Shown: positions 22,855 through 51,857, numbered from the stretch's first letter. The stretch: DNA of 64,000 nucleotides from an uncultured Actinomycetota bacterium (GCA_963796315.1 CAWCLH010000019.1:256676-320675); one strand, 5' to 3'. The notes: generated by a model from the letters alone, not told the origin. Numbers and translations are program-made.

Positions 22855-25197
22855 GTGCGTCTCATCATCTCCGAGAAGAACAACGTCGCCGAGAAGATCG
22901 CGACGATCCTGGCCGTGGGGAAGCCTCGCGTGGAGAGCTTCCTCAAGGTGCCGTACTACCTGTTCACCGACAAGGACGGCGTGGAGAACGTCGCCGTCGG
23001 CCTGAAGGGCCACGTCCTGCAGGTGGAGTTCCCCGCCGAGTACGCCGACTGGCGCAAGGTGGAGCCCCGCGACCTCATCGACGCGCCCCTGATCAAGGGC
23101 GAGACCGCCAAGAGCGTCGTCCGGGCGGTGCGGAAGCTGGCCGTCCAGGCGGATTCGCCTGGTCATCGCCACCGACTACGACCGCGAGGGCGAGCTGATC
23201 GGCCTGGAAGCCCAGGAGATCGCCGCCGGAGAGAACGAGCAGCTGCTCCGCTCGGTGCGGCGGGCCCGGTTCTCCGCGCTGACCCCGCACGAGATCAACG
23301 AGGCCTTCGCCTCGCTGGACCACCTGTCCGAACCGCTGGCCCGGGCCGGGGAAGCCCGGCAGGACATCGACCTGATCTGGGGGGCGACGCTCACCCGGTT
23401 CGTCTCCCTGGCCACCTCCCGCCTGGGCAGCCAGTTCCTCAGCGTGGGCCGGGTGCAGAGCCCCACCCTGGCGCTGGTCGTCGCCCGCGAGAAGGAGCGC
23501 CGCGCCTTCGTGCCCGAACCGTACTGGGTGGTCCGGGTGGACCTCACCGCTCAGGGCGAGGCGTTCTCCGCGCGTCCATAAGGAGGAACGTTTCCTGGAC
23601 GAGGCCCGGGCCCGCGAGGTCTTCGAGAAGCTGCGGGGGCCGGGCTCGGTCACCCAGGTCGAAGCGCTCGGAGAAGAAGGTGCCCCGCCCGGCGCCGTTC
23701 AGCACCACCAGCTTCACCAGCGCGGCCACGGCGCTGGGGATGAGCGCCTCCTCGGCCATGCGCGCGGCCGAGGACCTCTACATGGACGGGTACATCAGCT
23801 ATCCGCGGACCGACAACACGGTCTACCCCAACTCCCTCGACCTGCGGGAGATCCTCACCGAGCTGCGCTCGAGCCCCTTCGGCAAGGAGGCCGCCGAGCT
23901 GCTGGACCGGCCGAAGCTGCAGCCGAGCCGCGGGGGCAAGAAGACCACCGACCACCCGCCCATCTATCCCACGGGCGCCGCCCGGCGCGAAGCGCTGGAC
24001 GACCGCAAGTGGAAGGTCTACGAGCTGGTGGTCCGCCGCTTCCTGGCCACGCTGGCCGACGACGCCGTCTCCGAGTCCAACCGCATCGACTTCGACATCG
24101 ACGCCGAGCCCTTCTTCCTGCGCGGCAGCCGTATCCTCAAGCCCGGGTGGCTCGCCTACTACCCGTACTCCCGCCAGAAGGACGCCGAGCTGCCCCACCT
24201 GACCGAGGGCGACCGCGCCGACCTGGTGGAGAAGTACCTGGACGGCAAGGAGACGCAGCCCCCCGGACGCTACGGCCAGGGCCCCCTGATCGAGCTGATG
24301 GAGAAGCACAACCTGGGCACCAAGGCGACCCGGCACAACATCATCCAGAACCTCTACGACCGGGGCTACATCCACGGCAACCCCATCGAGCCCACCGAGA
24401 CCGGCATCAAGATGGCGGAGGCCCTGCAGGAGTACGCCCCCCGCATCGCCTCGGCCGACATGACGGCCCAGCTCGAGCTGGACATGGACCGCATCTCCGA
24501 GCGGGAGATGACCAAGGACGAGGTGGTGACCATCTCGCGCGAGCTGCTGCGCGACGCCTACCAGTCGTTGGAGGACAACCGCGAGCAGGTGGCGGCCAAG
24601 ATCGTCGAAGGCATCATCGACGACAAGATCCTGGGCGAGTGCCCCAAGTGCCACGTGAACAAGCTGCGCATCATCCGCTCGAAGGCCAGCCGCAAGCGCT
24701 TCGTGGGCTGCGAGGGCTACCCCGAGTGCGACCAGACCTATCCGCTGCCCCAGCGGGGCGACATCATCGCCCTGAACGAGACCTGCCCGCAGTGCGGCAG
24801 CCCGCGCATCAAGATCCTGGGCGGGAAGCGGCCCTGGATCCTCTGCGTGGACCCGGACTGCCCCACCAAGGCCGACTACCGCGAGAAGCGGCAGGCGCGC
24901 GAGGCGGCGGCCGCCGCCAAGGCCGCGGCCGCCGCTGAGGCGGGGAGCGACGGCGGCGACGGCGCGGCTCCGGCCAAAGGACGCCGCGCGGCCACGACGA
25001 AGACCAAGGCGGCGGCGAAGAGCAAGGCCAAGACCACCACCAAGACCGCGGCCAAGCCGAAGGCCAAGACGGCCGGCGCCAAAGCCAAGCCCAAGGCGGC
25101 CGCCGCGAAGCCGCGGGCGGCCCGCACCCGAGCGCAGGCGCGCCGGCCGCCGCCGCGGTCGCCGCCGGTGAAGGGACCGAGGAGGAGAGCTAGATGA
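22855..25197 (+). pseudogene. Type IA DNA topoisomerase (TopB/archaeal-TopA-like N-terminus) with a Lys/Ala-rich tail; three +1 frameshifts
   Basis: MRLIISEKNNVAEKIA Toprim start. ATDYDREGELIG and GRVQSPTL are readable only in frame 2 (23155-23572). SYPRTDN active-site Tyr region. C-terminal Zn ribbons CPKC..CEGYPEC, CPQC..CVDPDC. Switches near 23154, 23572 and 23664. Confidence 0.85.
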
Positions 25198-30503: not shown

Positions 30504-30576
30504 GCCGACGTAGCTCAGTTGGTAGAGCAGCTCACTCGTAATGAGCAGGTCTGGGGTTCGAATCCCCACGTCGGCT
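30504..30576 (+). tRNA. tRNA-Thr (anticodon CGU)
   Basis: Cloverleaf read by hand: acceptor GCCGACG/CGTCGGC, D arm GCTC-AGTTGGTAG-AGC, anticodon arm GCTCA-CTCGTAA-TGAGC, T arm TGGGG-TTCGAAT-CCCCA. No encoded CCA. Confidence 0.9.
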
Positions 30577-31018: not shown

Positions 31019-32293
31019 ATGCGGGGTTCCAGGGTGAATTCCAGGCATCGTCGCAACACTCAGGCCTCGTACGAGCGTAGCGCATTGTGGTGAACCTCTG
31101 CTGGCGTGCGCCACCCCAAGCCCTTGCGCGGACGGTGGTTGAGCAACTCCTCGACCGCTCGCAGTTCCTGCGGCGCGTGCCGGGAGAGGTCGCTGCCCTT
31201 GGGGGAGTGCTGGCGCAGCAGACGGTTGGTGTTCTCGTAGGTGCCGCGCTGCCACGGGGCGCCAGGGTGGGCGAAGAAGACGCCCTTGTCGAGGAGTCCC
31301 CCGATGCCGTCATGGGCCGCCATCTCGGGACCCTGGTCCCAGGTCAGCGTCCTCCGTTCGGAAACCGCCATCGCTCCGAACGTGCTGCGCAGCGCAACAC
31401 AGACCGCATCGGCGCCGTGGCCAGCGGGAAGATGCACGAGGCGCACCAGGCGAGAGTGCCGGTCGACCAGGGTGCCGATCGCGGACCTGTGCTGGCGCCC
31501 GACGATGAGGTCTCCCTCCCAGTCCCCGAGCCGCACTCGGCCGGCCGCCGCCGAGGAGCGCTCGTCGATCAGCTGCGAGGAGGCTTTGAATCGCGGGGTG
31601 CGCACGGCCGGCCGGCGCCGCCTCTGACGCAGCGGTCTCCCGGTGCGCAGGCGCTTTGTGAGCGTGCGTGCGAGCCCCGAGAGCGCCGGCGCGTAGAGGC
31701 CCTGGTAGATGGTCTCGTGGCAGAGGTGCCAGTGTGGCCTCGCCGGGTAGGTTTGGCGTAGCCACGCGGCGATCTGCTCCGGCGACCAGTCCATGACCAG
31801 GTGGTCGGCGACGAGCTCCCTCAGCTCCGCGTCGAGCTTGAGCTTCCCGGGCCGGGACCGTCTCGCCCGGGATCGAGCCCGGGCGTGGGCGAGGTCGCCA
31901 TCGTAGACGCCGCGGTCGTACGGCGCGAGGTTGCGAACAAGCTCGCGGCTCACCGTCGACGCTGCGCGCCCCAGCGCACGGGCGATTGAGCGCACCGATT
32001 CACCCCGGGCGCGCAGGGTCGCGATGCGCTGCCGCTCGAGTAGCGAGAGGTACCGAATCGAATGCTCGGCCTCGACCGGACGCACCGGGGCGATGCCACC
32101 GCGCTCCTTGCGCCAGCGGCAACCGGTCTTGCGAGTGATGCCGACACGCCGGCACGGTTCCACGGTGCCGGCGCCGGGCAAGGATGAACTGCCAGTACTC
32201 GTCTTCCAGATGAAGCCGTCTCTTGCGTCCTCTGCGACCCATGCACACGTTCTGATCGTTGGAGAGTGTTGCATCGAGCACTGGAACCCGCAT
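31019..32293 (-). mobile_element. IS30-family insertion sequence
   Basis: An imperfect terminal inverted repeat flanks a DDE transposase: AGTGTTGC...CTGGAACCC(C)GCAT at 32265-32293 and, reverse-complemented, at 31019-31060. No target-site duplication was recognised. Confidence 0.6.
31060..32242 (-). pseudogene. IS30-family transposase; one +1 frameshift near 32175
   Basis: MGRRGRKRRLHLEDEYWQFILA | GAGTVEPCRRVGITRKTGCRWRKE (HTH), then the DDE region GDWEGDLIVG .. TLTWDQGPEM .. PWQRGTYENTNRLLRQ. Confidence 0.85.
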
Positions 32294-32858
32294 GATGCAC
32301 AGGGGTTCATTTCAGGGTGCTGTTGACATGAAGCAGACGTTGGCGTCTCGAGCGGAGCCTGACTCGGCATCTCGGGGGTCACAGTGTCGCCGGTGGGGGC
32401 CGGCCACCAGACAGAATCCTTGGGGACTGAGGGGACGTTCGTGACGCGTGTCAATGCCGAAGCTAATGGTTCTCCGCAATTGCGAGCCTTCGGCTTCCCA
32501 ACTACCAGACGAGTGCCCAAGGCCCGACACAACCTCTCGGAAGACGACAATACATTACGATGGAGTTCGTCCCGAGGACGAAAAGACCCTAAGTCCGAAG
32601 AAGCCTGGCAAGAAGAGATCCAACTACTAATTATAGAATTATAATAGAAGCGACACCCTACGCATACGCAAGTGACAACAACGATTAACATCCTGGAGTC
32701 GACAATGCTACGGTCGCTGTAGTAGCTTCATATGCTCCATAGCGAAAAGATGAGAGACATGCGTGGCTATTGTAGCCGGTTCTCACCTCGGATAAGGTGC
32801 CGCCTGGTCTGGCCGACAAGGCCAGCAGGCACGGGACGGAGGGAAGGAGAACCGGCAC

Positions 32859-34391
32859 ATGGCAAGCAGTCAACGGTCGGTGCAACGCGGGTATCTGATC
32901 GCAGTGGGGCTCGTTGTCCTGCTGCTTATCGGTGGCATTTTGCCTACGACGAGGGGGTCGGCTTCGGGCGATAGCGCGTTCTACGATGTTGGCAGCTCCG
33001 ATTCGGAACTGTGGAAGGCGGCGTGGTACGTCAAACAGAACGGAATCTTCGAAGGGTACGATGGTGCGCTGCACCCGTGGGAACCGATGACGCGCCGCCA
33101 TGTCGCTTTGGTTCTCGAACGCGCCGGGCGCGGCTCACGCCCCAACTGGACGGACGACTATCAGACAGCGACCAGGGGCGAAGTCCTGGCGGCATTCCCG
33201 GGCCTGGCGTGGACCGAGGAACGGTGGTCCGAGAAGGTACTCCGCTCCCAAGTGGTTCGATTGATCTACCGAGGGAGGGCAGATCTCAACGGGGCCCTCC
33301 CGAGCAAAGTGGTCTCGGCCTCGCTCCCCCCTGCCTCCCAGGACGGAGCCATCCCCGAGGTCTCCGAGGCATTCGACGTCAGCACCTACGGCGCCACGGG
33401 CGACGGCCGCACCAACGACACGGCCGCCATCCAGCGGGCCATCGACGCCGCCGCCCGCACGTTCGGCACCGTCACCTTCCCGGCGGGCACCTTCCGGGTC
33501 GAATCGACCCTCTACCTGAAGAGCAACGTCACCGTGTCCGGGGTCGCGGGCCAGACCGTGCTCTCCATGCCGGCCAAGAGTTCGGCCACCGCCCTCTTCT
33601 ACGGGTCGGGTCTCAGCAACGTCACCCTGCAGAACCTCACCCTGCGCTCGACCGGTCCCCAGAGTTGGGTCTACGGGATCTCCACCTCCGGCATGCAGGC
33701 GAGCACCTTGCGCAACCTGCGCTTTGAGGATCTCCAGTTCGGCATGAAACTGGGGGGCGGGAACCTGTCCACCGGTTGGCTTGTGGAGGACATCGTCGCC
33801 CGGCACACTCGAGCCCCCCTCTACCTGGGGGACGTCCACGATTCGACCTTCCGCCGGCTCGACCTGGAAGGGGCGGGCACGGACGCGACCATCCCTCGAC
33901 CACTGCATCTACATCAACGCGAACGTGCAGGACTCGTTCGTTCGAGGACCTCAGCCTGACCAAGCCCTCGGGCTACGCCTTCCACATCGACCCCAACAAC
34001 GGCACCGCTCCCACCACCAGACTGGTCTTTCGCCGGGTCTTGGCCGACGCGTCCTGGAGCGGTAGCCCCATGGTCATCGCTGGGAGCCTCGCCACCGGCA
34101 TTCAGATCTACGATCTCACCGCCATCGGTGCCAACCGGTACGACCAGGCCATCCTGATGCTCGATAGTGCCCAGCAACATCCTGGTGGACGGCTTCCAGG
34201 CCAAGGGCAACAACTACCTCGTGCGCCAGTTCGGGGGCAGCAGCGCCAACGGGGTCACCTTCCGCAACGGCAACTTCAACGGCGTGCGGTTGGACTACGG
34301 CAGCCCGGCCACGCAGAACCTGGTCTTCCAGTCGGTCACTCTGAATGGGCCCAACGATATCGTCGCCTTGCCGGAACTGCCACATTCCTAG
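32859..34391 (+). pseudogene. SLH-domain cell-surface protein with a right-handed beta-helix (pectate-lyase-like) domain; three +1 frameshifts
   Basis: TM/signal segment, then an SLH-like FYDVGSSDSELWKAAWYVKQNGIFEGYDGALHPWEPMTRRHVALVL, then the beta-helix start DVSTYGATGDGRTNDTAAIQRAIDAA. Switches near 33890, 33935 and 34168. Confidence 0.7.
33375..34351 (+). repeat. Copy 1 of a ~0.98 kb near-identical direct repeat (beta-helix coding module)
   Basis: Aligns base for base with 35172-36148 at a constant offset of 1797 at both ends. Differences are a few substitutions and single-base indels. Confidence 0.9.
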
Positions 34392-34605: not shown

Positions 34606-34877
34606 TACTTGGTGGCCTCCGGTCGCCGCCGGAGCCTGCATGGAACCCCTTGCAGTGATCCGGGGGGTTCAGGCGATTCCAGGACTGGGCGAAGACCGGG
34701 CGCACGCCAGTCTGCGGACACCCCTGGATCTTCCCCCAGCCCTGCGTAAAGGGAAAGGCCGGTGAAGGAGCCGATATCCCCGGCAGCCCTTTCTTCGTGA
34801 CGACTCATATGGCGTAACACCAACCCGGCCACTGCGTTAACTGATCATGTAGTCCGCGGGCAGTTCACGAGAACTCC

Positions 34878-34962
34878 CACACGAAAAGGCACACCCACCG
34901 CGAGGTGGGGCCGCAAAGCCACGGGACTCCCGTCGGGAGTCAGCCGGGTTGCCGAAGTCTTG
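34878..34962 (+). promoter_or_regulatory. Class I c-di-GMP riboswitch (GEMM-I) candidate in the 5' leader of the 35025 gene
   Basis: AAAAGGCACACC-CACC-GCGA-GGTG-GGGCCGCAAAGCCACGGGACTCCC-GTC-GGGAGTCAGCCGGGTTGCCGAAG matches the conserved GGCAAACC / GNRA hairpin / GACGCAAAGCC / second hairpin / GGGGTTACCGA architecture of GEMM-I. Confidence 0.65.
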
Positions 34963-35171
34963 CGGGGTCGAGCCCTAAAGGCTTCAGCGCAAGTTGAAGT
35001 AGACCCCTGCATCGGGAGGTACACGTGCAGACTACAAGAGCGCAGCATTCTCGCCGCCGTCAACGTCCGGCACCGCTACACCTTATCTTCTTGGTAGTGT
35101 TGACACTGATGCTGGTCGCGACGGTCTTCGCCGGAGCGTTTCCCAGTCACGCCGGCGCCGTGGGGTTCTAC

Positions 35172-36148
35172 GACGTCAGCACCTACGGCGCCACGGGCGA
35201 CGGCCGCACCAACGACACGGCCGCCATCCAGCGGGCCATCGATGCCGCCGCCCGCACGTTCGGCACCGTCACCTTCCCGGCGGGCACCTTCCGGGTGGAA
35301 TCGGCCCTCTACCTGAAGAGCAACGTCACCGTGTCCGGGGTCGCCGGCCAGACCGTGCTCTCCATGCCGGCCAAGAGCTCGGCCACCGCCCTCTTCTACG
35401 GGTCGGGTCTCAGCAACGTCACCCTGCAGAACCTCACCCTGCGCTCGACCGGTCCCCAGAGTTGGGTCTACGGGATCTCCACCTCCGGCATGCAGGCGAG
35501 CACCTTGCGCAACCTGCGCTTTGAGGATCTCCAGTTCGGCATGAAACTGGGGGGCGGGAACCTGTCCACCGGTTGGCTTGTGGAGGACATCGTCGCCCGG
35601 CACACTCGAGCCCCCCTCTACCTGGGGGACGTCCACGATTCGACCTTCCGCCGGCTCGACCTGGAAGGGGCGGGCACGGATGCAGCCTATCCCTCGACCA
35701 CTGCCTCTACATCAACGCGAACGTGCAGGACTCTTCGTTCGAGGACCTCACGCCTGACCAAGCCCTCGGGCTACGCCTTCCACATCGACCCCAACAACGG
35801 CACCGCTCCCACCACCAGACTGGTCTTTCGCCGGGTCTTGGCCGACGCGTCCTGGAGCGGTAGCCCCATGGTCATCGCTGGGAGCCTCGCCACCGGCATT
35901 CAGATCTACGATCTCACCGCCATCGGTGCCAACCGGTACGACCAGGCCATCCTGATGCTCGATAGGCCCACCAACATCCTGGTGGACGGCTTCCAGGCCA
36001 AGGGCAACAACTACCTCGTGCGCCAGTTCGGGGGCAGCAGCGCCAACGGAGTCACCTTCCGCAACGGCAACTTCAACGGCGCGCGGTTGGACTACGGTAG
36101 CCCGGCCACGCAGAACCTGGTCTTCCAGTCGGTCACTCTGAATGGGCC
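35172..36148 (+). repeat. Copy 2 of the ~0.98 kb direct repeat
   Basis: See 33375-34351. Confidence 0.9.
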
Positions 36149-36167
36149 GGCCTACCCGGTCGCTACG

Positions 36168-36340
36168 ACCACCACGCAGGCGCCCACGACCACCACGACC
36201 GTCCGGCCCACGACGACCACGCTGGCGCCCACGACCACTACCACGGTCCGTCCCACGACGCACTACGCTGGCGCCCACGACGACCACGCTGGCCCCGACG
36301 ACCACGACCCTGATTCCAGCACCCACCACCACGCGGACGG
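36168..36340 (+). repeat. Tandem 45-bp coding repeat (A-P-T-T-T-T-T-V-R-P-T-T-T-T-L units)
   Basis: Unit 36180-36224 is 45 nt. The next unit, 36225-36270, is 46 nt with an extra C (ACGACG[C]ACTACG), followed by two shortened units. Confidence 0.8.
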
Positions 36341-37173
36341 CTACTCCGGCGTCTCCCGACGGTCAGGGAGGCTGGTACGTGACCGCCCCGAGCATCACGC
36401 TCTCTACCAGTTCCGCCGCTACCATCCACTACGCTTGGGCTGCCGGCTCGTTCGGCATTTACACGGGCTCGCTGACCGCCCCCGAGGGGACCACCGCGCT
36501 CTCATACTACGCCACGGCCCCGGGGAGCGAGACTGAGGCGACCAGGAGCGTCATGTATAGCGTTGACACGGTCGCCCCCCAGACCCCGCTCCTTACGGTC
36601 GTACCTTCGGGCACTGGTGTTGTCACTCTGAGTTGGGTCTCGTCCGACGCGGTCAGCGGCGTTGCCTTCTACGACGTCTTCATGGACGGGAACCTGCTGG
36701 GGAGCGTCGGGCCGGTCTCCACGTACCCCGTCTCCGGCCTCCTTGCCGGGAGCACGCACGCGTTCCAGGTCCGTGCCCACGACGTCGCCAGCAACCTGTC
36801 GGCGCTGAGCAACTCGGCGGCGGTGACCACAACCCTGGCCCTCGCCACCACAACGAGCCCGATCCGGGTAGCGTCGCTGAGTGTCACCGCAGTGACGCTC
36901 AGGAGGGCCTGGCAGGTCAGGGCCACCGTCAAGATCACTAATCTCTCTAACCAGCCGGTTTCGAAAGTCAGGGTGACCGGCATGTGGAGTGGCGCGGCCA
37001 CGGGCAGTTCCTCCAGTCTGACCAACGCGAGCGGCGTTGCGGTCCTGACATCGCCCAAGTTTGCGCCGGGAGGGGCCGCGACCTTCACCGTCACCGACGC
37101 AACGAAGACCGGCTACACGTACGACCCGGCCTCCAACCTTGTCCCGGGCTTGACCACACCGTAGGGCTATGAC

Positions 37174-40541: not shown

Positions 40542-42585
40542 CTAGCCTGCTTCGGCCGGGCTGAGAGAGTAGGTCGGGCGATTTGCCGGGGTGGTCGGTG
40601 CCGGGAGTCTCACGTCCGCGCAGTGATCCACTCCGGGGAACGTGCCCACTTGCGTCCAGTCGAACGGCTGGTACGAGGGGACGCAGCACTGGATGGCCGC
40701 GAGCATCTCCTCCCGGCTGGGATAGCGCTCGCCGAGGCTGATCAGCCGGTGGAGGTGCTCCTCGAAGCCCTCGGGTATGCCACCATCGCCGCTGTGGCCG
40801 TTCCCGTTCGTCAGCACTGCCAGGTTGATCGCCGGGTGGCTCGTCGGTAGTGTGGACTCCCCCTTGGCATAGAGTTCCTCGTGCAGCTTCTCGCCGGGTC
40901 GAAGCCCGGTCACCTCGATGCCCATCTGAGCGCTTCCCGTGGGTGCGAGCATGTCGATCATCTGCTGCGCCAGATCGATGATCCGCACGGGTTTGCCCAT
41001 GTCGAGGACGAAGGCGCCGTATCGGCTCTCAATCTCTTGCCCGACCTCGCCGGCCATCGACCCAGCCTGCAAGACGAGGCGGACCGCCTCTTCGATCGTC
41101 ATGAAGTAGCGGGTCATCTCGGGGTCGGTGATCGTCACCGGCCCTCCGGCCTCGATCTGCTGGCGGAACAGAGGGATCACGCTGCCTCGGCTGCCCAGCA
41201 CGTTGCCAAAGCGCACCGAGCGGAAATGGGTGCGGGGATAGAGTTCGGCCATCATGCGTACGGTCTGCTCGCCGATCCGCTTGGTCGCGCCCATGACGTT
41301 GACCGGGTCGACCGCCTTGTCCGTGGAGATGTTGACCACCCGCTCCGCGCCGTAGCGGCCGGCCGCCTGGCTGATGACCAGCGTACCCTTGACGTTGTTG
41401 ATCACGGCCTCGTCCGGGTGGAGCTCCATGAGGGGAACGTGCTTGAAGGCCGCCGCGTGGAACACGATCTGCGGCCGATAGGCGGCGAAGACCGCGTCCA
41501 TCTTCATGGGAAGTGCCACGCTCGTCGGGTTGATCGTATAGTTGGTGTAGCCGCGCTCGCGCAAGCTCCTCGTGCAGGTGATAGAGCGCGGATTCGTCTT
41601 TGTCGATGAGGAAGAGCTCCTGTACCCCGAACGCCGCGATCTGCCGGCAGAGCTCCGAGCCGATGGAGCCCGCCGCTCCGGTGACCAGCACCTTCTTGCC
41701 GTGCAGGTAGGCGCCGATGGCCTCCAAGTCGATGTCCACCTTCTCGCGCCCCAGAACGTCCTCGATGCGGAGCTCCCGCGCGTCCTTGAAGTGGACCTCT
41801 CCGTTCATCATCTCCGACAACGTCGGGAGCGTCTTGACCGGGATGCCCAGGGGGCTGATGAGGCCATGGATGCGAGCCAGATCCTCGCCGGAGGCCTCGC
41901 GGTCAGCGATGAGCACCTCAGAGACGTCATGACGCGAGATGACCTCGGGAATATGGTCGATGGAACCGAGCACCTGTGCCTGATGCAGGCGCATGCCCTC
42001 GAGCTCGCGATCGTCTGTGACGATGCCCACGACGCGGGTACGCAACTCCGGGGTCTGACCGATCTCGCGGATGAGGTGTTCGGCCGTGGGTCCGGCACCG
42101 ACGACGAGCAGTTGCTGCTCCCAGGCCACGTTGGAAAGGCTGCGCTCATAGAAGATGCGCGTGTAGAAGCGGACAGCGACCATGACCACCATACTCATGA
42201 AGCCGCCGACCACCACGACGGACAAGGGAGCGAGACGGCCCGAGATGGGCAGCACAGCAACGGCGACGAATAGGATGCTGGTGCCGAAGAATGAGGCCTT
42301 AACGATCCTGAGCGCCTGGATCAGGCCGATATAGCGATTGATAATGGTGTACGCCCCGCTGAACCAGTTCGCGGTGATATGAGCCGCGATGGCCAGGACA
42401 AGGAAGAACGGCAAGTTGGAAAGATACTGTGCCTCCTTGGCTTGCCCTTCGGATCGGAAGGTCAGTGCCAAAGAGTACGCCACGGCGACTATCAGTGCGT
42501 CGATGACAATCGCCATGAGTCGGCGTCGCCATACTCTATGCAGCGCGACCCTCACCGACCCTCCACGTCCTCTCCACTCCTGCAT
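40542..42585 (-). pseudogene. Membrane-bound nucleotide-sugar 4,6-dehydratase (CapD/PglF/WbpM family); one frameshift near 41565
   Basis: Four N-terminal TM segments, Rossmann folds LLVVGAGPTAEHL and KKVLVTGAAGSIGSEL, then (other frame) IVFHAAAFKHVPLME, NISTDKAVDPVNVMGATKR and RFGNVLGSRGSVIP. The start (42585, 42516 or 42678) is uncertain. Confidence 0.8.
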
Positions 42586-43074
42586 CTCTCGCGGCCCGGA
42601 CGCCCCACGTCCGTGGCCCGGAGAGATGAAAACTCCCTCATCCAGCATAGAGGCGAATAGTTGGCCACGCAAGTGCAAAATTCGACGGAAGCGATAGCGA
42701 TTTCACCAGCGTGCACCAGCCTACCCCGCTCGGAGGCGAGACCAATCGCGATAAGAGTCGGTCTCCGTAGGAGATTGCACCTCGTCGGACCGCGTTGACC
42801 ACGTGAACCCTGCCAAGCCTTCTCGCCGGGGACGATGCAAGTGCTACGCCTCACGTTGATACAATCGTCGCTGCATGCAGCAGACGGCGGACTCTGACGC
42901 CGTCCGCGCAAAGCCAATCGAGCATGAAGGAGCACGCTCTTTCGGTGGCTCCGCCAGCACGGAACCGGAGGATCGCACGTCCCAGAATGGCTGAATCGTG
43001 CGCTGATGGACTCTCACAGAACGCTCAAGTGCTAGCTGTGAGCGACGAAGACGCTCCCTCACGCCGTCGGCGGT

Positions 43075-43667
43075 TTGACTGCCCGCGACCGGGCTTTGAA
43101 GCGGGCCTTCGACGTGGTCGCTGCCCTAGGGGGACTCATACTCACCGGCTGGCTGATCGGGCTGGCCTTCATCGCCGCCACCGTCGACACGCGAGCCCGC
43201 GGATTCTTCACCCAGGAGCGGGTAGGCCTTGGCGGTAGACGTTTCAGGGTGATCAAGATCCGTACCATGCGCGTCTCGGCCGGATTCCAGACCAACGTCA
43301 CCACGGCGACGATCCCCGGATCACTCGGCTCGGAAGGGTCCTGCGAAGGACCAAGATCGACGAACTCCCGCAGCTCATCAACGTCTTGGTGGGCGACATG
43401 AGCATGGTGGGACCGCGGCCGGATGTACCGGGAGTCGCGGACGCGTTGCGCGGTGAGGATCGCCTCGTGCTCTCCGTCCGGCCCGGCCTTACCGGACCAG
43501 CATCTCTTGCGTACAGGGATGAGGAACTTCTGCTTGCCAGACAGGCTGACCCCCAGCGTTACAGCGAAGAGGTCATCTATCCGGAAAAGGTCCGTCTAAA
43601 CGTAGAGTATGTCAAGAACTACAGTTTCTGGGGGGATATAGCCTACATAGTCAGAACTGTCTTCTGA
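43075..43667 (+). pseudogene. Small phosphoglycosyl transferase (bacterial sugar transferase, PglC/WbaP-C-terminal type); one -1 frameshift near 43315
   Basis: TTG start. KRAFDVVAALGGLILTGWLIGLAFIAA, FTQERVGLGGRRFRVIKIRTM, then after the switch [37 protein letters not shown]. Confidence 0.8.
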
Positions 43668-43693
43668 ATCTACTTAGGAAGTCCTCAGCAAGA

Positions 43694-44829
43694 TCACAGC
43701 TGAAGTTTGGCGCCTTCTTCTAGTGCGTCCGCGACCAAGTCGACTTCAGCTATAGTGAGGCTCCCGTGGAAGGGAAGCGCGATTGTCCGCTCGGCTCACG
43801 TCTTCTGTGACAGGCAGACTTCCCGGGCCCCATTTCCATTCGTTGGTTGGCTCCTCTTGCCGAGAGAAGCTCGCGAACGTAAGGCTGCGAGTGCACTGGA
43901 GGGAAGTAAGAACGTGCAGGGATGCCCACGCTGTTCAAGTAGGTGATCAGCTGGTCACGGTCCACGCCCGGCTTCAGAGTCACCACGTAGACAAACCAGC
44001 TCACCCGGACATCTGATCGTGAGACCGGGAGCGTCAGCCAAGAGAAGCCGCGGAGGCGTCGGGAGTACATCTGGGCCACCATTTCACGCTTGCGGAGTAG
44101 GGTCTTCACTCTCTTCATCTGGGAGACCCCAGCGCCGCGCTCATTTCATCGAGACGATAGTTGTAGCCCAGGCGCTCATGCGCGAGCCATGAGCCCATTC
44201 TGCCTCGGCCCTGATTTCGCCAACTCCGGCACGCCTCAGCCAACTCGGCACTGGAGGTCACGATCATGCCCCCTTCGCCGGTGGTGATCTGCTTATTGGC
44301 ATAGAAGGCGAAGGTGGCGGCGTCCCCGAAGGAACCTACTGGTCGTCCCCGATACTGGGCGCCGAGGGCCTCGCACGAATCGTCAATCACCGCGAGGCCG
44401 TGCTCTTGAGCGATCCGGTCGATCTCGTCCCAGTCGGCCGGGTGGCCAAAGACGTCCACCACCATGATCGCCTTGGTCTCTGGGCTGATCTTCTGTTCGA
44501 GGTCCTTGTGGATCCACGGTGTAGGTATCTGGCTCTATGTCGACGAAGACCGGAGTCGCGTGCTCGTAGAGGATGCAGTTGACGCTGGCGGCGAAGGTGA
44601 AGGACGGGACTAGCACTTCATCGCCGGGGCCGAGGCCCAGCGCCCGGACCGCTAGGTGAAGAGCGGCAGTGCCCGAACTGACGGCGACAGCGTGCTCGAC
44701 CCCCACATAATCGGCAACCATCGCCTCGAACTCGTCTTGCTTCGGGCCGAGGGAAAGACGTCCCGAGCGGAGGACGTCGACGACGCCGGCGATGTCGTCC
44801 TCATCGATGTCGGGCGCCGACATCGACAC
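43694..44829 (-). pseudogene. DegT/DnrJ/EryC1-family sugar aminotransferase (PglE-like); at least 4 frameshifts
   Basis: MSMSAPDIDEDDIAGVVDVLRSGRLSLGP .. SSGTAALHLA .. FYANKQITTGEGGMIV (PLP-Lys) .. GYNYRLDEMSAALG. The C-terminus ALPFHGSLTIAEVDLVADALEEGAKLQL* was recovered by hand, with stop at 43694-43696. Confidence 0.8.
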
Positions 44830-44889
44830 GCGGTCGTTGACTCACCGACTGCCTCCCCGCGTCGCGGAACGTCGGCCAATCAAAGGAAG

Positions 44890-46398
44890 TCAGATCCGGC
44901 CGTTACGCACATCTTCCTGTGCCTGCTGGTAGTCCTCGTGGCGCCCCACATCCAGCCAGTACTCGATGATGGGGAAACTGACGACCGTCCGCCCTTCCTC
45001 GAGCATCTTGTGGATCAGGTCGGTCATGTCGAAATGCTCGTCCTCCGGGATGAAGTCGCACGCCGTTGGCTCAAGTAGATACACCCCGGCATTGATGAGG
45101 AAGCTCAATGCGGGCTTCTCGTCGAGTGCGATGACCCTTGCGTCGTCGCATCGCACGACCCCGAAGGGAACCTTCACTTCGTACTTCCTCACTCCGACCG
45201 TGAGTTCCGCCCCGTGCTTTCGGTGATAGTGCAGCATCTCCTCGAATGAGACTCCGGTGAGCACGTCCCCGTTCAGCACCAGGAAAGGTCCGTCATCTCT
45301 GTCCCTCAGCTTCAGTCCGCCGGCAGTGCCGAGCGGCTGATCTTCCCTTGAGTAGGTCAGCCTGATCCCGAAGCCCTCCCCGTCGCCGAAGTGCTGGACG
45401 ATGTGGTCAGGCAGGTAGTGAGTGGTCAGGTTCACGTCCCGGATGCCGGAGCGGCGCAGTTGCTCGATGGTCCGTTCGAGCAGGGGGCGGTCTCCCACCG
45501 GCAGCATGGGCTTGGGAACGCTCTCGGTCAGCGGCAGCAGCCGCGTCCCGTATCCCCCAGCCATGATCACGGCGGAAATGCCCAGGTGGTTCTCCTGCAA
45601 GAGGTCTCGGCGTGGGAGGAACTGGACGAGCGTGCCCTCCTCATCCACGACCGGAAGGTGGTTGATGTCGCGCTGGGTCATGAGGTGGAGGGCATCGGCG
45701 GCGGATATCGAGCCTCGCGCGGTGATGGGATGAAGGTTGGCGATCGACTCGCAGGGATCGTCAAGAGAGGCCCCCCGAAGGATGGCCCGGCGGATGTCCC
45801 CATCGGTCAGCAGTCCCAGGAGTCTCCTGTCGGAAGAGCAGAGTGCCAGTGCCCCCGTCCCCGCCCTATCGAGGCGGGCCATCGCCTCCAGGATGGGCAG
45901 TTGGGGAGGGACGATGACCGCGTCCAAGAACTCGCTCACCCCCGCGACGAGATCCTTCTCCACGATGAGGTCCTTGCGCAGCAGCAGGGCCTGAAAGACG
46001 CCCTCCTCATCCACGACCGGAAGGTGGTTGATATCGCGCTGGGTCATGAGGTGGAGGGCATCGGCGGCGGATATCGAGCCTCGCGCGGTGATGGGATGAA
46101 GGTTGGCGATCGACTCGCAGGGATCGTCCAGAGAGGCCCCCCGAAGGATGGCCCGGCGGATGTCCCCATCGGTCAGCAGTCCCAGCAGCTTCCCGTCGGG
46201 GGCGCAGAGTGCCAGTGCTCCGGTCGCGACCTTGTCCAGGTGAGCCATGGCTTCGCCGATCGACGATCCCGGCGCGACGATGGCATCCTCCAAGGGTCGA
46301 CCGGGACTCATGGGCGGCACGTTGCGCTTCCGGCTTGCACGGCTGGCCCTCTGGCGGCGGAGCCGGTCATGTGATCCTCTTGGCCGGGGTGCCGACAT
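44890..46398 (-). CDS. Sugar-phosphate nucleotidyltransferase with four N-terminal CBS motifs (PtmE-like)
   Basis: Intact. Two CBS pairs, then AVIMAGGYGTRLLPLTESVPKPMLPVGDRPLLE, typical of the NTP-transferase fold. The start may be ATG 46311. Confidence 0.8.
   Translation of the reverse strand: MSAPRPRGSHDRLRRQRASRASRKRNVPPMSPGRPLEDAIVAPGSSIGEAMAHLDKVATGALALCAPDGKLLGLLTDGDIRRAILRGASLDDPCESIANLHPITARGSISAADALHLMTQRDINHLPVVDEEGVFQALLLRKDLIVEKDLVAGVSEFLDAVIVPPQLPILEAMARLDRAGTGALALCSSDRRLLGLLTDGDIRRAILRGASLDDPCESIANLHPITARGSISAADALHLMTQRDINHLPVVDEEGTLVQFLPRRDLLQENHLGISAVIMAGGYGTRLLPLTESVPKPMLPVGDRPLLERTIEQLRRSGIRDVNLTTHYLPDHIVQHFGDGEGFGIRLTYSREDQPLGTAGGLKLRDRDDGPFLVLNGDVLTGVSFEEMLHYHRKHGAELTVGVRKYEVKVPFGVVRCDDARVIALDEKPALSFLINAGVYLLEPTACDFIPEDEHFDMTDLIHKMLEEGRTVVSFPIIEYWLDVGRHEDYQQAQEDVRNGRI
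45634..46185 (-). repeat. Intragenic duplication: 186-bp cores 45634-45819 and 46000-46185 spaced exactly 366 bp (one CBS pair)
   Basis: I find only two mismatches between the cores (45667 G/A, 45764 A/C). The flanks of each unit are clearly more diverged. Confidence 0.85.
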
Positions 46399-46997
46399 AG
46401 GTACCGGGGGTAAGGAGGTCTCTGATGACCGTGGCCCCTGCGCCGACGACGCAGTCGCCGCCGATCGTGATGCCCTGTATTACGGTCGCCCCTGCGCCGA
46501 CCATGGTGTTATCGCCGATCGTCACCCCGCCGCTCACCGTTGCCCCCGGGGCCACGTGAACGTTCTCACCGATCCGGCAGTCATGCTCCACCGTGCTGTT
46601 CGTGTTGAGGATGGACCAGCCGCCGACCACCGTCCCGCTGTTCACCACGACGCCGTCGAGCACCACCGTCCCGGCGCCGAGATCCACCTCTTCATTGACG
46701 ACCGCCTGGGGGGAGGTAATCGCGGGGAAGCGATACCCAAGTGGCTGGATGGTTCGCTGGAGCTCCATCCGGTAGGGGGACGCATCGATCTTCCCCGTCC
46801 CGAGCACCGCTTGGCAGGAAGGGTCCTGCCCGATCAGCTCGGCCAAGAATCTCGTCGCTTCCAAGATACGGCGCTCCGAGACAGGGCCCTCGGTCCCGAT
46901 GGTCGGTGTAGCCGATAACGGCAAAGCCCAGCCTCTTCAGAACGCCGATCACCACCTTGGCGTGCCCCCCGCCGCCAACGACGACGATCCTATCCAT
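46367..46997 (-). pseudogene. NeuD/PglD-family hexapeptide-repeat sugar N-acetyltransferase; one frameshift near 46900
   Basis: MDRIVVVGGGGHAKVVIGVLKRLGF N-terminus, then left-handed beta-helix repeats IGENVHVAPGATVSGGVTIGDNTMVGAGATVIQGITIGGDCVVGAGATV. Confidence 0.8.
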
Positions 46998-48161
46998 CGC
47001 GGAGCGCTTGGACGACGTAGTCGATGTCGCTTGCCGTGAGACTCACACTGCAGGGAAGGTTGAGGGTGGTTTCCAGCATGCGCGGAGCCCTCTCGATCCG
47101 GTAGGGCTGAAAGCGGCGAAAGGGGGTCTGCAGATGGTTGAGCTGCCACAGCGGCCTCGTCTGGATGCCTTTCTCCAGCAGGTAGCCGCATGAGCTGCTC
47201 GCGATCGCGTCCGTAGATCCGGCTGTCGATGCGCAGGGGATACATCCAGTGGTTGTTTCGAGCATATGACGGGCTCGCCGCCATCTCCAGCCCATCGATC
47301 TGCTCGATGGCCGCAGAGTACGCTGCGGAAGTTCTCGCGCTTGGTCTCGAGGAAGTCGGGCAGACACTCCAGCTGAGCCACGCCGATGGCCGCCAGCACG
47401 TTGGTCAGCCGGAAGTTGTAGCCAATCTCCTCGTGGACGTAACGGACTTCATCATCCTTGGCCTGAGTGGTCAGGTACTTCGCCTTCTCCGCATGCTCCG
47501 GCCCGGTCGGTGACGATCATCCCCCCACCGCCGCTCGTGATGATCTTGTTGCCGTTGAAGGAGAAGCATCCGATGTCGCCGAGCGTCCCGGTGTGGCGCC
47601 CGGCCAGCTCACCCTCAAGGTAGACTGTCCCCAGGCTCTCGGCCGCATCCTCCACGATCTTGATGTTGCGCTCGCGACACGCCGAGAGAAGCTCCTGCAG
47701 TTGCGCGGCGTTCCCGAAGACGTGGACGGGTACTATGGCCGCTATCCGGTTGCCCGTTCCCCGATTGTAGGTACGACCCGTCCCTGGCTCTCGGTCTCCG
47801 TCTCGAGGAAGTCCAGCACCTTCTCCGCATCGATGTTGTAGTACTCGTCGCAATCCATGAAGATCGGGTCGGCTCCCTGATACCGGACGGCATTGACGGT
47901 GGCCACGAAGGTCACCGTGGGGACGATCACCTCGTCGCCGGGCAGCACCCCCGCGACCCGGAGGGCGACCTGGAGCGCCGCCGTGCCGTTGACACAGGCA
48001 ACCGAGTGGCCCGCGCCGGTGTAGGAGCGGATCGCGGCCTCGAACTGTTCGACGTACTTCCCTGCCGTCGACACCCACTCCGTGTCGAGGCACTCCTCGA
48101 CGTACTTCCACTCGTTGCCTCGTATGCACGGAACTGCCAGGGGTATCATGCGTTTTTCCAA
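46990..48161 (-). pseudogene. DegT-family aminotransferase (LegC-like); at least 5 frameshifts
   Basis: IPLAVPCIRGNEWKYVEECLDTEWVSTAG .. NGTAALQVAL .. FSFNGNKIITSGGGGMIVT .. GYNFRLTNVLAAIGVAQLE .. LNLPCSVSLTASDIDYVVQALRDG*, spread over three frames. Confidence 0.8.
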
Positions 48162-48165
48162 GTTT

Positions 48166-49143
48166 CTATGTATTGCTGTACTCTGCGGCGTCCGGGTTGG
48201 TGACTATTCCCTCATGTACGACATCGTATATCTCTCTAATGCCCTGTGGCACTCGCTTGGTTATTGTGAACCCTAGTTCATCTCTTATCTTGGAGAAATC
48301 GACGCGATAATCACGAGGGTCCTCGTCCCTGTGGACGAAGCGGATCTTCGCAGCCGGGTCGAGCTTCCACAGTTCGTCCGCAAGCATCGACTTTCTGGTA
48401 GTTCTCTGCGGTGTCGCCCACGCCGAACACGTTCTGCCGCAGCTTCTCAGGCGCACCCTCCAGAGCGAAGATGCACGCGCGAGCCAAATCGTCCACATGG
48501 CAGTAGGGGCGCCAGAACTGCTCCCCGAAGATTTCGAGCTCGCGCCCCAGAGCGACTTCTCGGGCGAACTCGTTGACCGTGAGATCGAAGCGGATCCGAG
48601 GCGAGAGGCCGTAGACCGTGGAGAAGCGCAGGGCGGTGGGGACGAAGTCTTCCCGGATCTCGCTTTGGAGCAGGTAGCGTTCGAACTCCACCTTCAGCTC
48701 GGCATAGAGCGAGACGGGAGTGAGAGGCGAGTCTTCGTTGACGAAGCCGTCCCCCTCCATCTTGCCGTAGTTGCTGCAGGTGGACGCGAAGATGAAGCGC
48801 TTGACGTGGCTGGTCGCCGCGCAGAGGTCGAAGAGGCTGCGCGACGCCTCCCAGTTGATCTCTCGCGCCAGCTCTGGCTGCTTGCGCAGGCGGGATCGCC
48901 GACGATGGCGGCCAGGTGGACTACCGAGTCGACCTCCGCGAGCGCGGCCCCCAGGCGCTCCGCATCTCGCACATCGCCCTTCACGAACTCGAAACGGGGA
49001 TGATTGTAGACAGGGATCAGGGGTTCGCCACCAAAGCTCAGGTTGTCGTAGCCCCTGACGGAGTAGCCATTCTCGAGCAGCAAACGGACGAGCACGGATC
49101 CGATGTAGCCGGCGGCGCCCGTGACCAGCACTCTCGCGCTCAT
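48166..49143 (-). pseudogene. NAD-dependent nucleotide-sugar epimerase/dehydratase (LegB-like); two frameshifts
   Basis: MSARVLVTGAAGYIGS, ..STCSNYG.. and YAELKVEFERYL (YxxxK). Switches near 48880 and 48420. Confidence 0.8.
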
Positions 49144-49646
49144 GTTGATTTGCCTCTCATGATCATGTCCCGTCCATTCCGTCCCGTCCGGCACCGCAAT
49201 GTTTGCGATCTACTGACGCGCTTCGCGCTGAGGAGGCGCGTGGTCGATGACGAATCGGTGAGCACCACGCCTGCGACATGACGGTCGTCGATTTGAGTGC
49301 GATAGCCAACCCCCGCATGAATGACCCTACATGCCCTATCGGTCGTAACAAGGTGTTCATCAAGGGTAGCGCATGCGTCGCACCCGGGGGAGACCTCGTG
49401 GCAGAGCCGCCTCCGGAGGCCGGCCCGACATTCCGCAGGCACTCCCGATGCACTCATTTCAAGGGAAGCTGCCCAGTGCCGACACGCGATTGGGGCCCCT
49501 CTACCCATGGTTCCCGGAGTTCACGGTTCTGCCGCGGCCACCCCGCGCCCAGCTTACTGCACAGCCAAACGTGCGTTGCGGCCGGCGTTTCCGATAGGAT
49601 GGCTGCACCACAGCCACGTCTATGGTGTTCCAACGAGGAGAACAAG

Positions 49647-50666
49647 GTGATCGGCGAAGACCGAGCGTTCATCATTGCTGAGGCGGGAGTCAATCACAAT
49701 GGTTCGGTCGATGTCGCCAAGAGATTGATCGACGAGGCTCGACACGCTGGTGCGGACTGCATTAAGTTCCAAAGCTTCATCGCTGACAAGTTGGTGAGTC
49801 GTTCTGCCGAAAAGGCGCAGTACCAGAAGCAGACTACTGAGGGTCCAACTACCCAATACGAGATGCTCAAGCGTTTGGAGTTGAGCGAGGAGGATCACCG
49901 CACTTTACTCGCGCATTGCCGCGAAAACGGGATGATGTTCTTGTCGAGCGCATTTGATGAGGAAAGCGCCGATTTGCTCGAGGATCTTGGGGTGGTCGCC
50001 TACAAGATCCCTTCGGGAGAAGTGACCAATCATGGGTTCCTTCGATACCTTGCGCAGAAGGAAAAGCCCTTGATCCTCTCGACCGGGATGTCGACATTGG
50101 CTGAGGTCGCCGAGGCGATAGAAGTGATCATCGCGGCAGGCAACCAGCAACTGTACCTACTGCATTGCGTGACTGAATACCCGGCTCCGTTTGCCGAGAT
50201 CAACCTAAAGGCTATGCTCACATTGGAAAACGCTTTCGGTTTCCCCGTGGGCTATTCCGACCACACCGAGGGAATAGAGGTTGCCGTGGCGGCCGTGGCG
50301 CTCGGTGCCAGGATCATTGAGAAGCACTTCACTCTCAGCAGGGACATGGCGGGTCCCGATCACAAGGCGTCGCTCGAGCCGCACGAGTTGCGTGCCATGG
50401 TGGAGGCTATCCGGAACGTCGAGGACTCCCTGGGAAACGGCGTCAAGATGCCCGCCCCTTGCGAAATGAAGAACATGGCTGTCGCCCGTAAGAGCGTCGT
50501 GGCACGGCGGGACATCGCGAGCGGAGAACGCATCAGCCGAGAGAACGTGGCGATCAAGAGGCCGGGTCACGGCATTCAGCCCAAGGATATCGACAAGGTG
50601 ATGGGGTTGATGGTCACTACCGACGTCGCGGCCGACAGCGTCATTACGTGGGAAGATCTGAAATAG
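49647..50666 (+). CDS. neuB: N-acetylneuraminate-type (nonulosonic acid) synthase, NeuB/LegI family
   Basis: Intact. FIIAEAGVNHNGSVDVAKRLIDEA, AYKIPSGEVTNHGFL, GYSDHTEGIEVAVAAVALGARIIEKHFT and a C-terminal SAF-like domain. GTG 49647 follows GAGGAG; ATG 49599 is the alternative. Confidence 0.88.
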   Translation: MIGEDRAFIIAEAGVNHNGSVDVAKRLIDEARHAGADCIKFQSFIADKLVSRSAEKAQYQKQTTEGPTTQYEMLKRLELSEEDHRTLLAHCRENGMMFLSSAFDEESADLLEDLGVVAYKIPSGEVTNHGFLRYLAQKEKPLILSTGMSTLAEVAEAIEVIIAAGNQQLYLLHCVTEYPAPFAEINLKAMLTLENAFGFPVGYSDHTEGIEVAVAAVALGARIIEKHFTLSRDMAGPDHKASLEPHELRAMVEAIRNVEDSLGNGVKMPAPCEMKNMAVARKSVVARRDIASGERISRENVAIKRPGHGIQPKDIDKVMGLMVTTDVAADSVITWEDLK

Positions 50667-51857
50667 ACTCCAGACGTGTCTGTGTCGTAACCACCTCTCG
50701 CTCCGACTACGGGCTGCTCCGCTGGCTCATGCGGGCAATCCAAGAAGACGAGGAACTGAGACTGCAGGTGATCGCGACCGGGATGCATCTCTGTCCCGAA
50801 TTCGGGCTCACCTACCGAGATATCGAGGCGGACGGCTTTCAGATCGATCGGAAGATCGAGATGGTGCTTTCCGCTGATACCGACAGGGCAGTCACGAAGT
50901 CAATCGGGATAGGTCTACTGGCGTTTGCCGATGCTGTCGAGGATCTACGCCCTGACATTGTCGTCATCCTTGGGGACCGCTTCGAACTGCTCTCCGCGGC
51001 TATCGCGGCTCTGATTGCCAAGATACCTCTCGCGCATATCCACGGTGGGGAGACAAGCCAGGGCGCCATTGACGAGAGTGTAAGGCATGCCATAACGAAG
51101 ATGGCTTCGTTGCATTTCGCGGCAACAGAGGCGTACCGACAGAGAATCATCCAGATGGGCGAGGAGCCTCAGGCTGTCTTCGCATTCGGTGCTCCCGGTT
51201 TGGATGCATTGCGTCACATCACGCTCCTGACCAAAGAGGAACTTGAATCGCGTCTCGATTTCCGAATCCAGAGCCCGGCCGCCATTGTGACGTACCATCC
51301 GGTCACGCTCGAGAAAGACACTGCGGAGGCCCACATCAAGAGTCTCCTTAGCGCATTGCTGGAGGAGGGGATCCGGGCTGTCTTCACAAAAGCGAACGCA
51401 GATCCGCAGGGTCGATTGATCAACGATATCATTGCCGATTTCTGCCGGAATCGTCCTGATGACTATAGACTTTTTGACAATCTTGGCCAGCGAGTGTACT
51501 TAAGCTGTCTAAGCAATTTCGACATGATGATTGGGAATTCGTCCAGCGGTCTCATTGAAGCGCCCTCATTCAGGCTTCCAGTCGTCAACGTCGGTGACAG
51601 GCAGAAGGGGCAGAATCAGGGCGCTGAACGTCATAGATGTTGGTTGCTCCGTTTCGGAGATCTCGTCTGGTATCAGCAAGGCGTTCTCCAAATCTTGGAG
51701 GGAAGGATTAAAGGACGTCCAAAATCCATATTTGGGTTGTGCCGACGGTGATGTGAGTTTCTACATCAAGGAAGAGCTTAAAGGGATTGAACTTGGTGAA
51801 TCGCTCTTGAAGAAGGCTTTTCACGACATCCCCCGGAGCGGAGAGACCAGGATATGA
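50648..51857 (+). pseudogene. neuC: Hydrolysing nucleotide-sugar 2-epimerase, NeuC/LegG family; one +1 frameshift near 51610
   Basis: RVCVVTTSRSDYGLL, VVILGDRFELLSAAIAALIAKIPLAHIHGGETSQGAIDESVRHAITKM and GNSSSGLIEAPSFRLPVVNVGDRQKG, then the tail in the next frame. Confidence 0.85.

Follow-up and report, generated by a model that had tools for sequence, protein, structure and literature searches.

The question raised by this locus is whether a gene with a GTG start at 35025, in a 64,000-nucleotide stretch of DNA from an uncultured Actinomycetota bacterium (hereafter the window), is controlled by cyclic di-guanosine monophosphate (c-di-GMP) through an RNA element in its own leader. A preliminary description, made from the sequence alone, had read a class I c-di-GMP (GEMM-I) riboswitch in that leader, had taken the gene to be one of two paralogues encoding beta-helix surface proteins, and had proposed a covariance-model search as a check. 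The leader does carry a GEMM-I riboswitch aptamer, far beyond what chance would give. The element adds a well-supported member to a familiar RNA family and is not novel in kind.

A GEMM-I aptamer with a canonical pocket

The whole 64-kb window was scanned with cmscan against Rfam 15 at gathering thresholds. An aptamer of the c-di-GMP-I clan (CL00126) was matched at 34879-34957 on the plus strand, with a score of 69.8 bits and an E-value of 4.5e-13 for the whole window. The top model was RF03168 (c-di-GMP-I-UAU), whose gathering score of 65.9 was exceeded and whose positions 1-81 were covered end to end. Two other families of the clan scored at or above their own gathering scores on the same aptamer and were masked by clan competition; the masked score for the clan member RF01051, which has a gathering score of 35, was at least 35 bits. 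The only other gathering-level Rfam match in the 64 kb was a tRNA at 30504-30576, and the aptamer was the sole GEMM match. It lies 67 nt upstream of gene 35025, on the same strand, and the gene has a strong Shine-Dalgarno sequence. The aptamer is made up as follows.

34879-34957, plus strand: GEMM-I aptamer (cmscan, full model 1-81).
34884-34957, plus strand: RNA AAAAGGCACACC...GCCGAAG (sequence).
C34882-G34954 and G34883-C34953, plus strand: proximal pairs of helix P1a (Rfam structure).
34889-34914, plus strand: P1b hairpin, with closing pairs G34889-C34914 and C34890-G34913 (Rfam structure line).
34894-34899 with 34904-34909, plus strand: P1b stem, capped by the GNRA tetraloop GCGA at 34900-34903 (Rfam structure line).
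34917-34950, plus strand: P2 hairpin, beginning with 34917-34920 paired to 34947-34950, with A34921 bulged (Rfam structure line).
34922-34931 with 34935-34941 and 34944-34946, plus strand: continuation of P2, with an AG bulge at 34942-34943 and the loop GUC at 34932-34934.
C34912 and G34943, plus strand: candidate inter-helix pair, at positions equivalent to Vc2 C44-G83.

This architecture is shared with the Vc2 aptamer of Vibrio cholerae, the prototype of the class, and with RF01051: a three-helix junction of P1a, P1b and P2, a GNRA tetraloop on P1b, the junction CGCAAAGCC and the closing GGGUUNCCGA. Unlike Vc2, the window aptamer has a compact P2 with a 3-nt loop, lacks the 11-nt GAAA receptor, has GCGA as its tetraloop and has a P1a of 2 bp as aligned. 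Candidate elements for docking of P1b into P2 and for the inter-helix pair are present in the sequence, namely the GCGA tetraloop and, at the right positions, the bases C34912 and G34943. In Vc2, C44 and G83 form an inter-helix pair, and G20 and C92 contact the two guanines of c-di-GMP (PMC11705072).

The helices covary. In a hand-checked alignment of eight sequences, the window and seven relatives sharing the core, 97.7% of the cells in 22 pairs held standard pairs, with double changes in 3 pairs (7 cells). This covariation score was reached by none of 500 shuffles, and 3' partners slid out of register paired at only 28-46%. P1b was paired in 100% of cells, with compensatory changes in two pairs, and P2 in 99%, with one compensatory pair. 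P2 was also recovered by RNAfold in every construct folded.

The top label, c-di-GMP-I-UAU, raises the question of whether the aptamer is a specificity variant that senses something other than c-di-GMP. Alignment to the UAU and GGC consensus sequences identifies the pocket bases as G34888, A34915 and C34952; the pocket is canonical because these match Vc2 G20, A47 and C92. A47 of Vc2 is an intercalating, ligand-contacting base. The window resembles RF03168 in its compact, GC-rich P1b and P2, and scores highest under that model (69.8 bits against the gathering score of 65.9), which is what favours a variant. The consensus bases U10 and U76 of RF03168, in contrast, face G34888 and C34952, so that both name-giving positions are mismatched and the UAU pocket feature is absent. 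The GGC model, RF03167, has a G in place of A47 (ACGCGAAGCC; consensus ACGCGAAgCc). This feature is absent too: the window reads CCGCAAAGCC, with A34915 in the CGCAAAGCC junction, and the window and all its relatives have ACGC or CCGC followed by AAAGCC.

The UAU and GGC variants were reportedly defined by Weinberg et al. in PNAS in 2017; the naming logic used here follows the consensus lines of the models. The GEMM-Ib aptamers that sense 3'3'-cyclic GMP-AMP, reportedly described by Kellenberger and by Nelson in 2015 (both cited in PMC5473149), have an A at position 20; the window has G34888 at this position, which too speaks against a variant.

The behaviour of the labels themselves argues in the same direction. 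The aptamers of three related contigs that carry a homologous gene (L001, L002 and L007; see below) score best under RF03167, at 60-64 bits with their short P1a pairs included, yet carry CGCAAAGCC where the model has CGCGAAGCC. As a calibration, 18 actinobacterial loci (L013-L081) were selected with a pattern in which canonical G20 and A47 are obligatory. They gave 23 aptamer calls, 16 of which were labelled GGC or UAU; the remaining 7 were labelled RF01051, at 50.9-60.2 bits against its gathering score of 35. Because most calls with canonical G20 and A47 thus also received a variant label, the label seems to track the compact GC-rich periphery and not the binding pocket, and the UAU label of the window aptamer appears artefactual, a product of related models competing for one match. 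We consider a specificity variant extremely unlikely, and file the element, on its predicted pocket, among the canonical GEMM-I aptamers rather than the UAU variants. Under clan competition, most compact GC-rich aptamers with canonical G20 and A47 end up with a UAU or GGC label in Rfam, and automatic annotation would over-report variant riboswitches. The pocket bases need to be checked before altered specificity is inferred.

By every sequence-level measure applied, the element is thus a member of the c-di-GMP-I family. Each of the sequence elements that the preliminary description had read in the leader was found there, and its claim of a class I c-di-GMP riboswitch is borne out by a covariance-model score above the gathering threshold, the canonical pocket, the covariation in P1b and P2, and the recurring association of aptamer and gene described below.

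The regulated gene and the recurrence of its aptamer

The gene downstream of the aptamer was characterized by profile searches and by comparison with its homologues.

35025-37164, plus strand: regulated gene, encoding a signal peptide, a PF12708 right-handed beta-helix, a Pro/Thr linker, an FN3-like domain and a further C-terminal region.

The open reading frame (ORF) beginning at 35025 has a signal-peptide-like N-terminus and matches PF12708 with an E-value of 1e-17 (Pfam). The GTG start is supported by this N-terminus and by co-linearity with the homologue in L002, to which tblastn aligns it from residue 4. The family profile matches beta-helix structures in the PDB, among them glycanases (GH55, alpha-1,3-glucanases), alginate C5-epimerases, polysaccharide lyases and phage tailspikes, and the product is predicted to be a secreted beta-helix polysaccharide-active enzyme.

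The pairing of aptamer and gene recurs. Three other contigs have the aptamer immediately before a beta-helix (PF12708) homologue: L001 (63% protein identity), L002, at its second copy (68%), and L007, a Thermoleophilia metagenome-assembled genome (MAG; 37%). Outside coding sequence, the aptamer is the sole block conserved between the window and L002, with 86% identity over 78 nt as compared with about 75% in the coding region. A core-pattern scan of reference genomes gave at least 120 GEMM-I loci in many phyla, and tblastn found the beta-helix gene at none of the 120 matches listed. The pairing is real and, among the sequences compared, restricted to a narrow lineage. A protein-based metagenome scan returned two loci, with the aptamer at neither. 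The host lineage is probably Thermoleophilia-like, judged from the named homologues, which come from Thermoleophilia MAGs. Several GEMM-I aptamers were found in Thermoleophilia and Solirubrobacterales MAGs. Two Thermoleophilia MAGs carry them in close succession, as a back-to-back tandem in L056 (5072-5304) and about 0.8 kb apart in L043 (3945-4019 and 4777-4851).

We put at roughly 0.85 the probability that the GEMM-I aptamer is functional, responds to c-di-GMP and controls gene 35025 in cis. Several observations count against it. P1a is only 2 bp long as aligned. The aptamer is missing from many homologues of the gene: no match was found at L003-L006, L008 or L129-L133, several of which are contigs with little upstream sequence. 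No GGDEF motif was found in any long ORF of the 64-kb window. Finally, the gene has frame changes relative to its homologues at about 35688, 35752 and 36255.

If these frame changes were real, the switch would guard a decaying gene and the intact-looking aptamer would be a relic whose regulation no longer matters. The first two shifts lie 64 nt from each other and cancel out, leaving 21 out-of-frame residues in the deposited protein in place of the conserved LDHCxYINANVQDSxFEDL; because of the third, in the Pro/Thr linker, the FN3 tail is no longer read in the frame of ORF 35025. The upstream paralogue is broken too, and an IS30-like transposase is adjacent, both as a relic would have it. The repaired protein, on the other hand, is co-linear with an intact 482-aa orthologue that stands behind the same aptamer in L002, and the aptamer itself is undegraded, with a full-length model match and all helices intact. 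The state of an essential gene in the same window also bears on the matter. A NuoL-like complex I gene at 11724-13494 (plus strand) is split over at least four frame changes, its pieces being the ORFs 11724-12023, 11801-13426, 12486-13025 and 12829-13494. Because NuoL is split in the same way, the frameshifts in the target gene are ascribed to an indel-prone assembly; they are most likely assembly errors and not pseudogenization, and we regard a relic as highly improbable.

The preliminary description had also assigned the regulated paralogue an FN3 domain and a Pro/Thr linker. The domain is real: it lies in ORF 36142-37164, after the linker, and matches PDB entry 1k85 with an E-value of 2.4e-8, although Pfam fn3 reaches only 0.067. 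The part of the claim that does not hold in this assembly is its connection to ORF 35025, the reading frame being interrupted as described.

Frequent single-base indels colour every frameshift or pseudogene call in the window. A topoisomerase I ORF at 22855-25197 (plus strand) matches the Topoisom_bac profile over positions 113-410 only, from residue 269, with no Toprim domain detected, and is probably another frameshifted conserved gene.

Possible expression platforms and direction of the switch

The leader on either side of the aptamer contains the following elements, from which possible expression platforms can be assembled.

34857-34878, plus strand: 5' leader segment with the anti-Shine-Dalgarno CUCCC at 34874-34878 and CACG at 34866-34869 (minimum-free-energy folds); it can form either a local hairpin, GGGCAGUUC with GAACUCCC, or a long-range pairing with the Shine-Dalgarno sequence and start codon.
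34958-35011, plus strand: spacer or insert of about 54 nt between the aptamer and the ribosome-binding site (sequence, folds).
34964-34969 with 35002-35007, plus strand: 6-bp stem GGGGUC/GACCCC, in the insert.
34983-34998, plus strand: inner hairpin UUCAGC-GCAA-GUUGAA, within that stem.
G34951-U34961 with A34978-C34988, plus strand: alternative tail hairpin (minimum-free-energy folds).
Between GACCCC and GGGAGG, plus strand: 6 nt, UGCAUC (sequence).
35014-35019, plus strand: Shine-Dalgarno sequence GGGAGG, followed by a 5-nt spacer and the GTG start at 35025-35027 (sequence).

A terminator scan found no intrinsic terminator on the plus strand. Translation initiation is the default expectation because of this, and control is most likely exerted there. 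The leader differs in this respect from the Firmicute switches Cd1 (flgB of C. difficile) and Bc1 (B. thuringiensis), which belong to the same aptamer class, control motility or surface functions, and act via intrinsic terminators (PMC6366702; PMC11218506); Cd1 is an OFF switch. Two minus-strand 'terminators' called at 34892-34909 were rejected as a scan artefact: they are the reverse complement of P1b and a T-run complementary to the AAAA junction. No sigma-70 promoter was found upstream in a promoter scan.

The GGGGUC/GACCCC stem had been put forward in the preliminary description as the expression platform. The stem is present where it was placed, but it is unconserved. It lies in the insert of about 54 nt, which has no counterpart in the closest relatives, L001 and L002, where CCGAAA directly precedes UCGGAGG and the Shine-Dalgarno sequence follows 5 nt after the aptamer. 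The fold of 34955-35030 is no better than that of shuffled sequences (z -1.04). The insert is unique within the window, no repeat copy of it having been found there.

In any translational switch of this kind, c-di-GMP would bind the RNA at the junction of P1a, P1b and P2, and binding would close the short P1a helix (C34882-G34954 and G34883-C34953). P1a closure would then alter access to the ribosome-binding site, which lies 57-70 nt downstream in the window and 5 nt downstream in the closest relatives. In Vc2, the length and formation of P1a are coupled to stable ligand binding (PMC11705072).

We tentatively prefer a translational OFF switch, to which we would give somewhat less than even odds. 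Closure of the junction would favour pairing of CUCCC (34874-78) and CACG (34866-69) with GGGAG (35014-18) and with the CGUG in which the start codon lies, and this pairing of leader to Shine-Dalgarno sequence would extend P1a around the folded aptamer. Without ligand, the 5' segment would be held in its local hairpin (34857-34878) and the 3' tail of the aptamer in the alternative hairpin (34951-34988). High c-di-GMP would thus lower synthesis of the enzyme. When the leaders of the window and of L001 are folded to minimum free energy, a helix encloses the folded aptamer and buries the Shine-Dalgarno sequence and the start codon; in L001 this helix consists of 5 bp plus 6 bp and covers the Shine-Dalgarno sequence and AUG. 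The duplex between 5' flank and start region in L001 is also stronger than in shuffled sequences (p = 0.02), and constraining the L001 aptamer to its ligand-bound (holo) form lowers accessibility of the Shine-Dalgarno sequence from 0.38 to 0.05. OFF is also the polarity of Vc2, which resembles the window aptamer in lying in the 5' leader of a surface or 'environment' gene. The Vc2 element upstream of tfoY is a known OFF switch (bioRxiv 10.1101/617340). The setting differs from that of Vc2 in its GC-rich actinobacterial host, the PF12708 beta-helix gene downstream and the lineage-specific insert of about 54 nt.

Other results of the same calculations detract from an OFF switch. The flank-to-start duplex is weak in the window (p = 0.11) and not significant in L002 or L007, and the holo constraint leaves access to the Shine-Dalgarno sequence unchanged in the window (0.22 free, 0.19 holo), L002 and L007. 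The platforms also vary among the relatives, the insert being confined to the window and L007 having a different spacer. The folding and shuffle tests point to no consistent direction of the switch.

The same aptamer could instead drive a translational ON switch. Without ligand, the tail G34951-U34961 would pair with A34978-C34988, so that ACCCCUG (35003-35009) would be available for pairing with CGGGAGGU and would mask the Shine-Dalgarno sequence. Once ligand is bound, P1a would capture the tail, GGGGUC (34964-69) would pair with GACCCC (35002-07), and the Shine-Dalgarno sequence would be freed. Longer constructs have both hairpins, that of the tail and ACCCCUG/CGGGAGGU, in their minimum-free-energy fold; GGGGU is common to the two alternative hairpins; and in unconstrained ensembles the Shine-Dalgarno sequence is for the most part paired (0.06-0.22), as the default state of an ON switch needs. 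The holo constraint, which should release that sequence in the window, fails to do so, the insert that bears the ON elements is missing from the closest relatives, and the fold of 34955-35030 is, as noted, no better than that of shuffled sequences. L001 and L002 do have a small tail hairpin, CCG-AAAU-CGG, that overlaps the Shine-Dalgarno sequence, but it has merely 3-4 bp. We regard an ON switch as doubtful.

Rho-dependent termination or an effect on mRNA stability, instead of or besides occlusion of the ribosome-binding site, is unlikely in our view. It would accord with the lack of an intrinsic terminator in a GC-rich genome, with a leader of at least about 150 nt, and with thermodynamic models in which Shine-Dalgarno access does not change in a consistent way. 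Control of RNA stability, too, is reported for Vc2 in the same preprint (bioRxiv 10.1101/617340). Against this, the 5 nt between aptamer and Shine-Dalgarno sequence in L001 and L002 leave no room for a separate Rho-loading platform, and nothing in 34958-35024 stands out as a C-rich, G-poor rut-like tract. The rest of the probability falls to non-function or to some other route.

A strand-swap ON mechanism, in which the P2 5' strand ACUCCC would serve as the anti-Shine-Dalgarno, was set aside, P2 being very stable in all folds. CUCC occurs at the P2 5' strand in 8 of the 126 core matches listed and looks like a shared ancestral trait of an aptamer sub-lineage. In L007 (2941-3003), the aptamer is immediately followed by an in-frame AUG that has a GAGG 5 nt ahead of it, and the annotated start, with a strong GGAGG of its own, comes 60 nt later; the start of the L007 gene, and hence the length of its platform, is ambiguous.

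The unswitched paralogue and the genomic surroundings

The aptamer stands before only one of two tandem beta-helix genes. These genes and their surroundings in the window are as follows.

32859-34391, plus strand: upstream paralogue (copy A), without riboswitch, with a hydrophobic N-terminal segment, an SLH-like repeat and the beta-helix module; frameshifted.
33374-34351, plus strand: homogenized beta-helix tract of copy A, partner of 35171-36148.
35171-36148, plus strand: homogenized beta-helix tract of copy B, within the riboswitch-controlled gene, partner of 33374-34351.
30504-30576: tRNA (Rfam).
31060-32691, minus strand: IS30-like transposase (HTH_38 and rve), adjoining the leader of copy A.
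40542-53355: nonulosonic-acid/polysaccharide biosynthesis cluster, downstream of gene 35025.

That the two genes are paralogues, as had been claimed, is clear from the two 978-nt tracts, which are 98-100% identical and differ by 4 single-base indels. Copy A is frameshifted relative to homologues at about 33890-34170. The element indeed precedes one paralogue only: in addition to the single GEMM match of the window scan, a permissive scan of 32500-33000 with E-values up to 10 gave no GEMM-like match in the leader of copy A. Two details of the earlier account of copy A are less secure. An SLH repeat, which had been taken to anchor the protein, is present, but it is single and marginal (19.8 bits against a cut-off of 20.8), which leaves the claim of anchoring weak. 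The leader of copy A, described as AT-rich, is so in relative terms only, with 58% GC as compared with 65.5% for the window.

The layout is the same in L002, where two tandem beta-helix genes are found with the aptamer before the second alone. The homogenized tracts of L002 (4767-5730 and 6505-7469, 965 nt) are 99.9% identical between copies and start within 3 nt of the homologous position, while L002 and the window share about 75% DNA identity. The tandem arrangement seems to predate the split of the two lineages, with the module probably homogenized within each genome by gene conversion, since modules are about 99% identical within each genome and the genomes only about 75% identical to each other. 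Independent recent duplications would be a less parsimonious explanation than an older shared arrangement.

Of the two paralogues, the one with the SLH-like repeat lacks a riboswitch and the one with signal peptide, Pro/Thr linker and FN3 domain has one, and gene conversion would keep their catalytic beta-helix modules nearly identical in at least two lineages. One enzyme activity might be run under two regimes, one constitutive and wall-bound, the other gated by c-di-GMP and released, and the insert may have rewired the polarity of the switch in the window lineage; we consider this combination rather improbable.

The G+C content of the window falls from 68.4% (1-30000) to 62.8% (30600-64000). 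This fall, together with the tRNA and the IS30-like transposase, suggests a tRNA-flanked variable surface-glycan island. The cluster at 40542-53355 encodes a Polysacc_synt_2 (CapD-like) dehydratase, a CBS-nucleotidyltransferase, a hexapeptide acetyltransferase, NeuB, a UDP-GlcNAc 2-epimerase, a CMP-transferase (cytidylyltransferase) and a short-chain dehydrogenase.

The variant mislabelling and the reading of the frameshifts as assembly errors leave riboswitch biology unchanged; the concerted evolution of switched and unswitched paralogues and the mislabelling of variants are mildly interesting and would not surprise a specialist. If the aptamer is functional, a polysaccharide-active beta-helix enzyme would join the c-di-GMP regulon in a little-studied lineage of actinobacteria, and the surface-glycan cluster nearby fits the usual logic of c-di-GMP governing matrix and surface remodelling.

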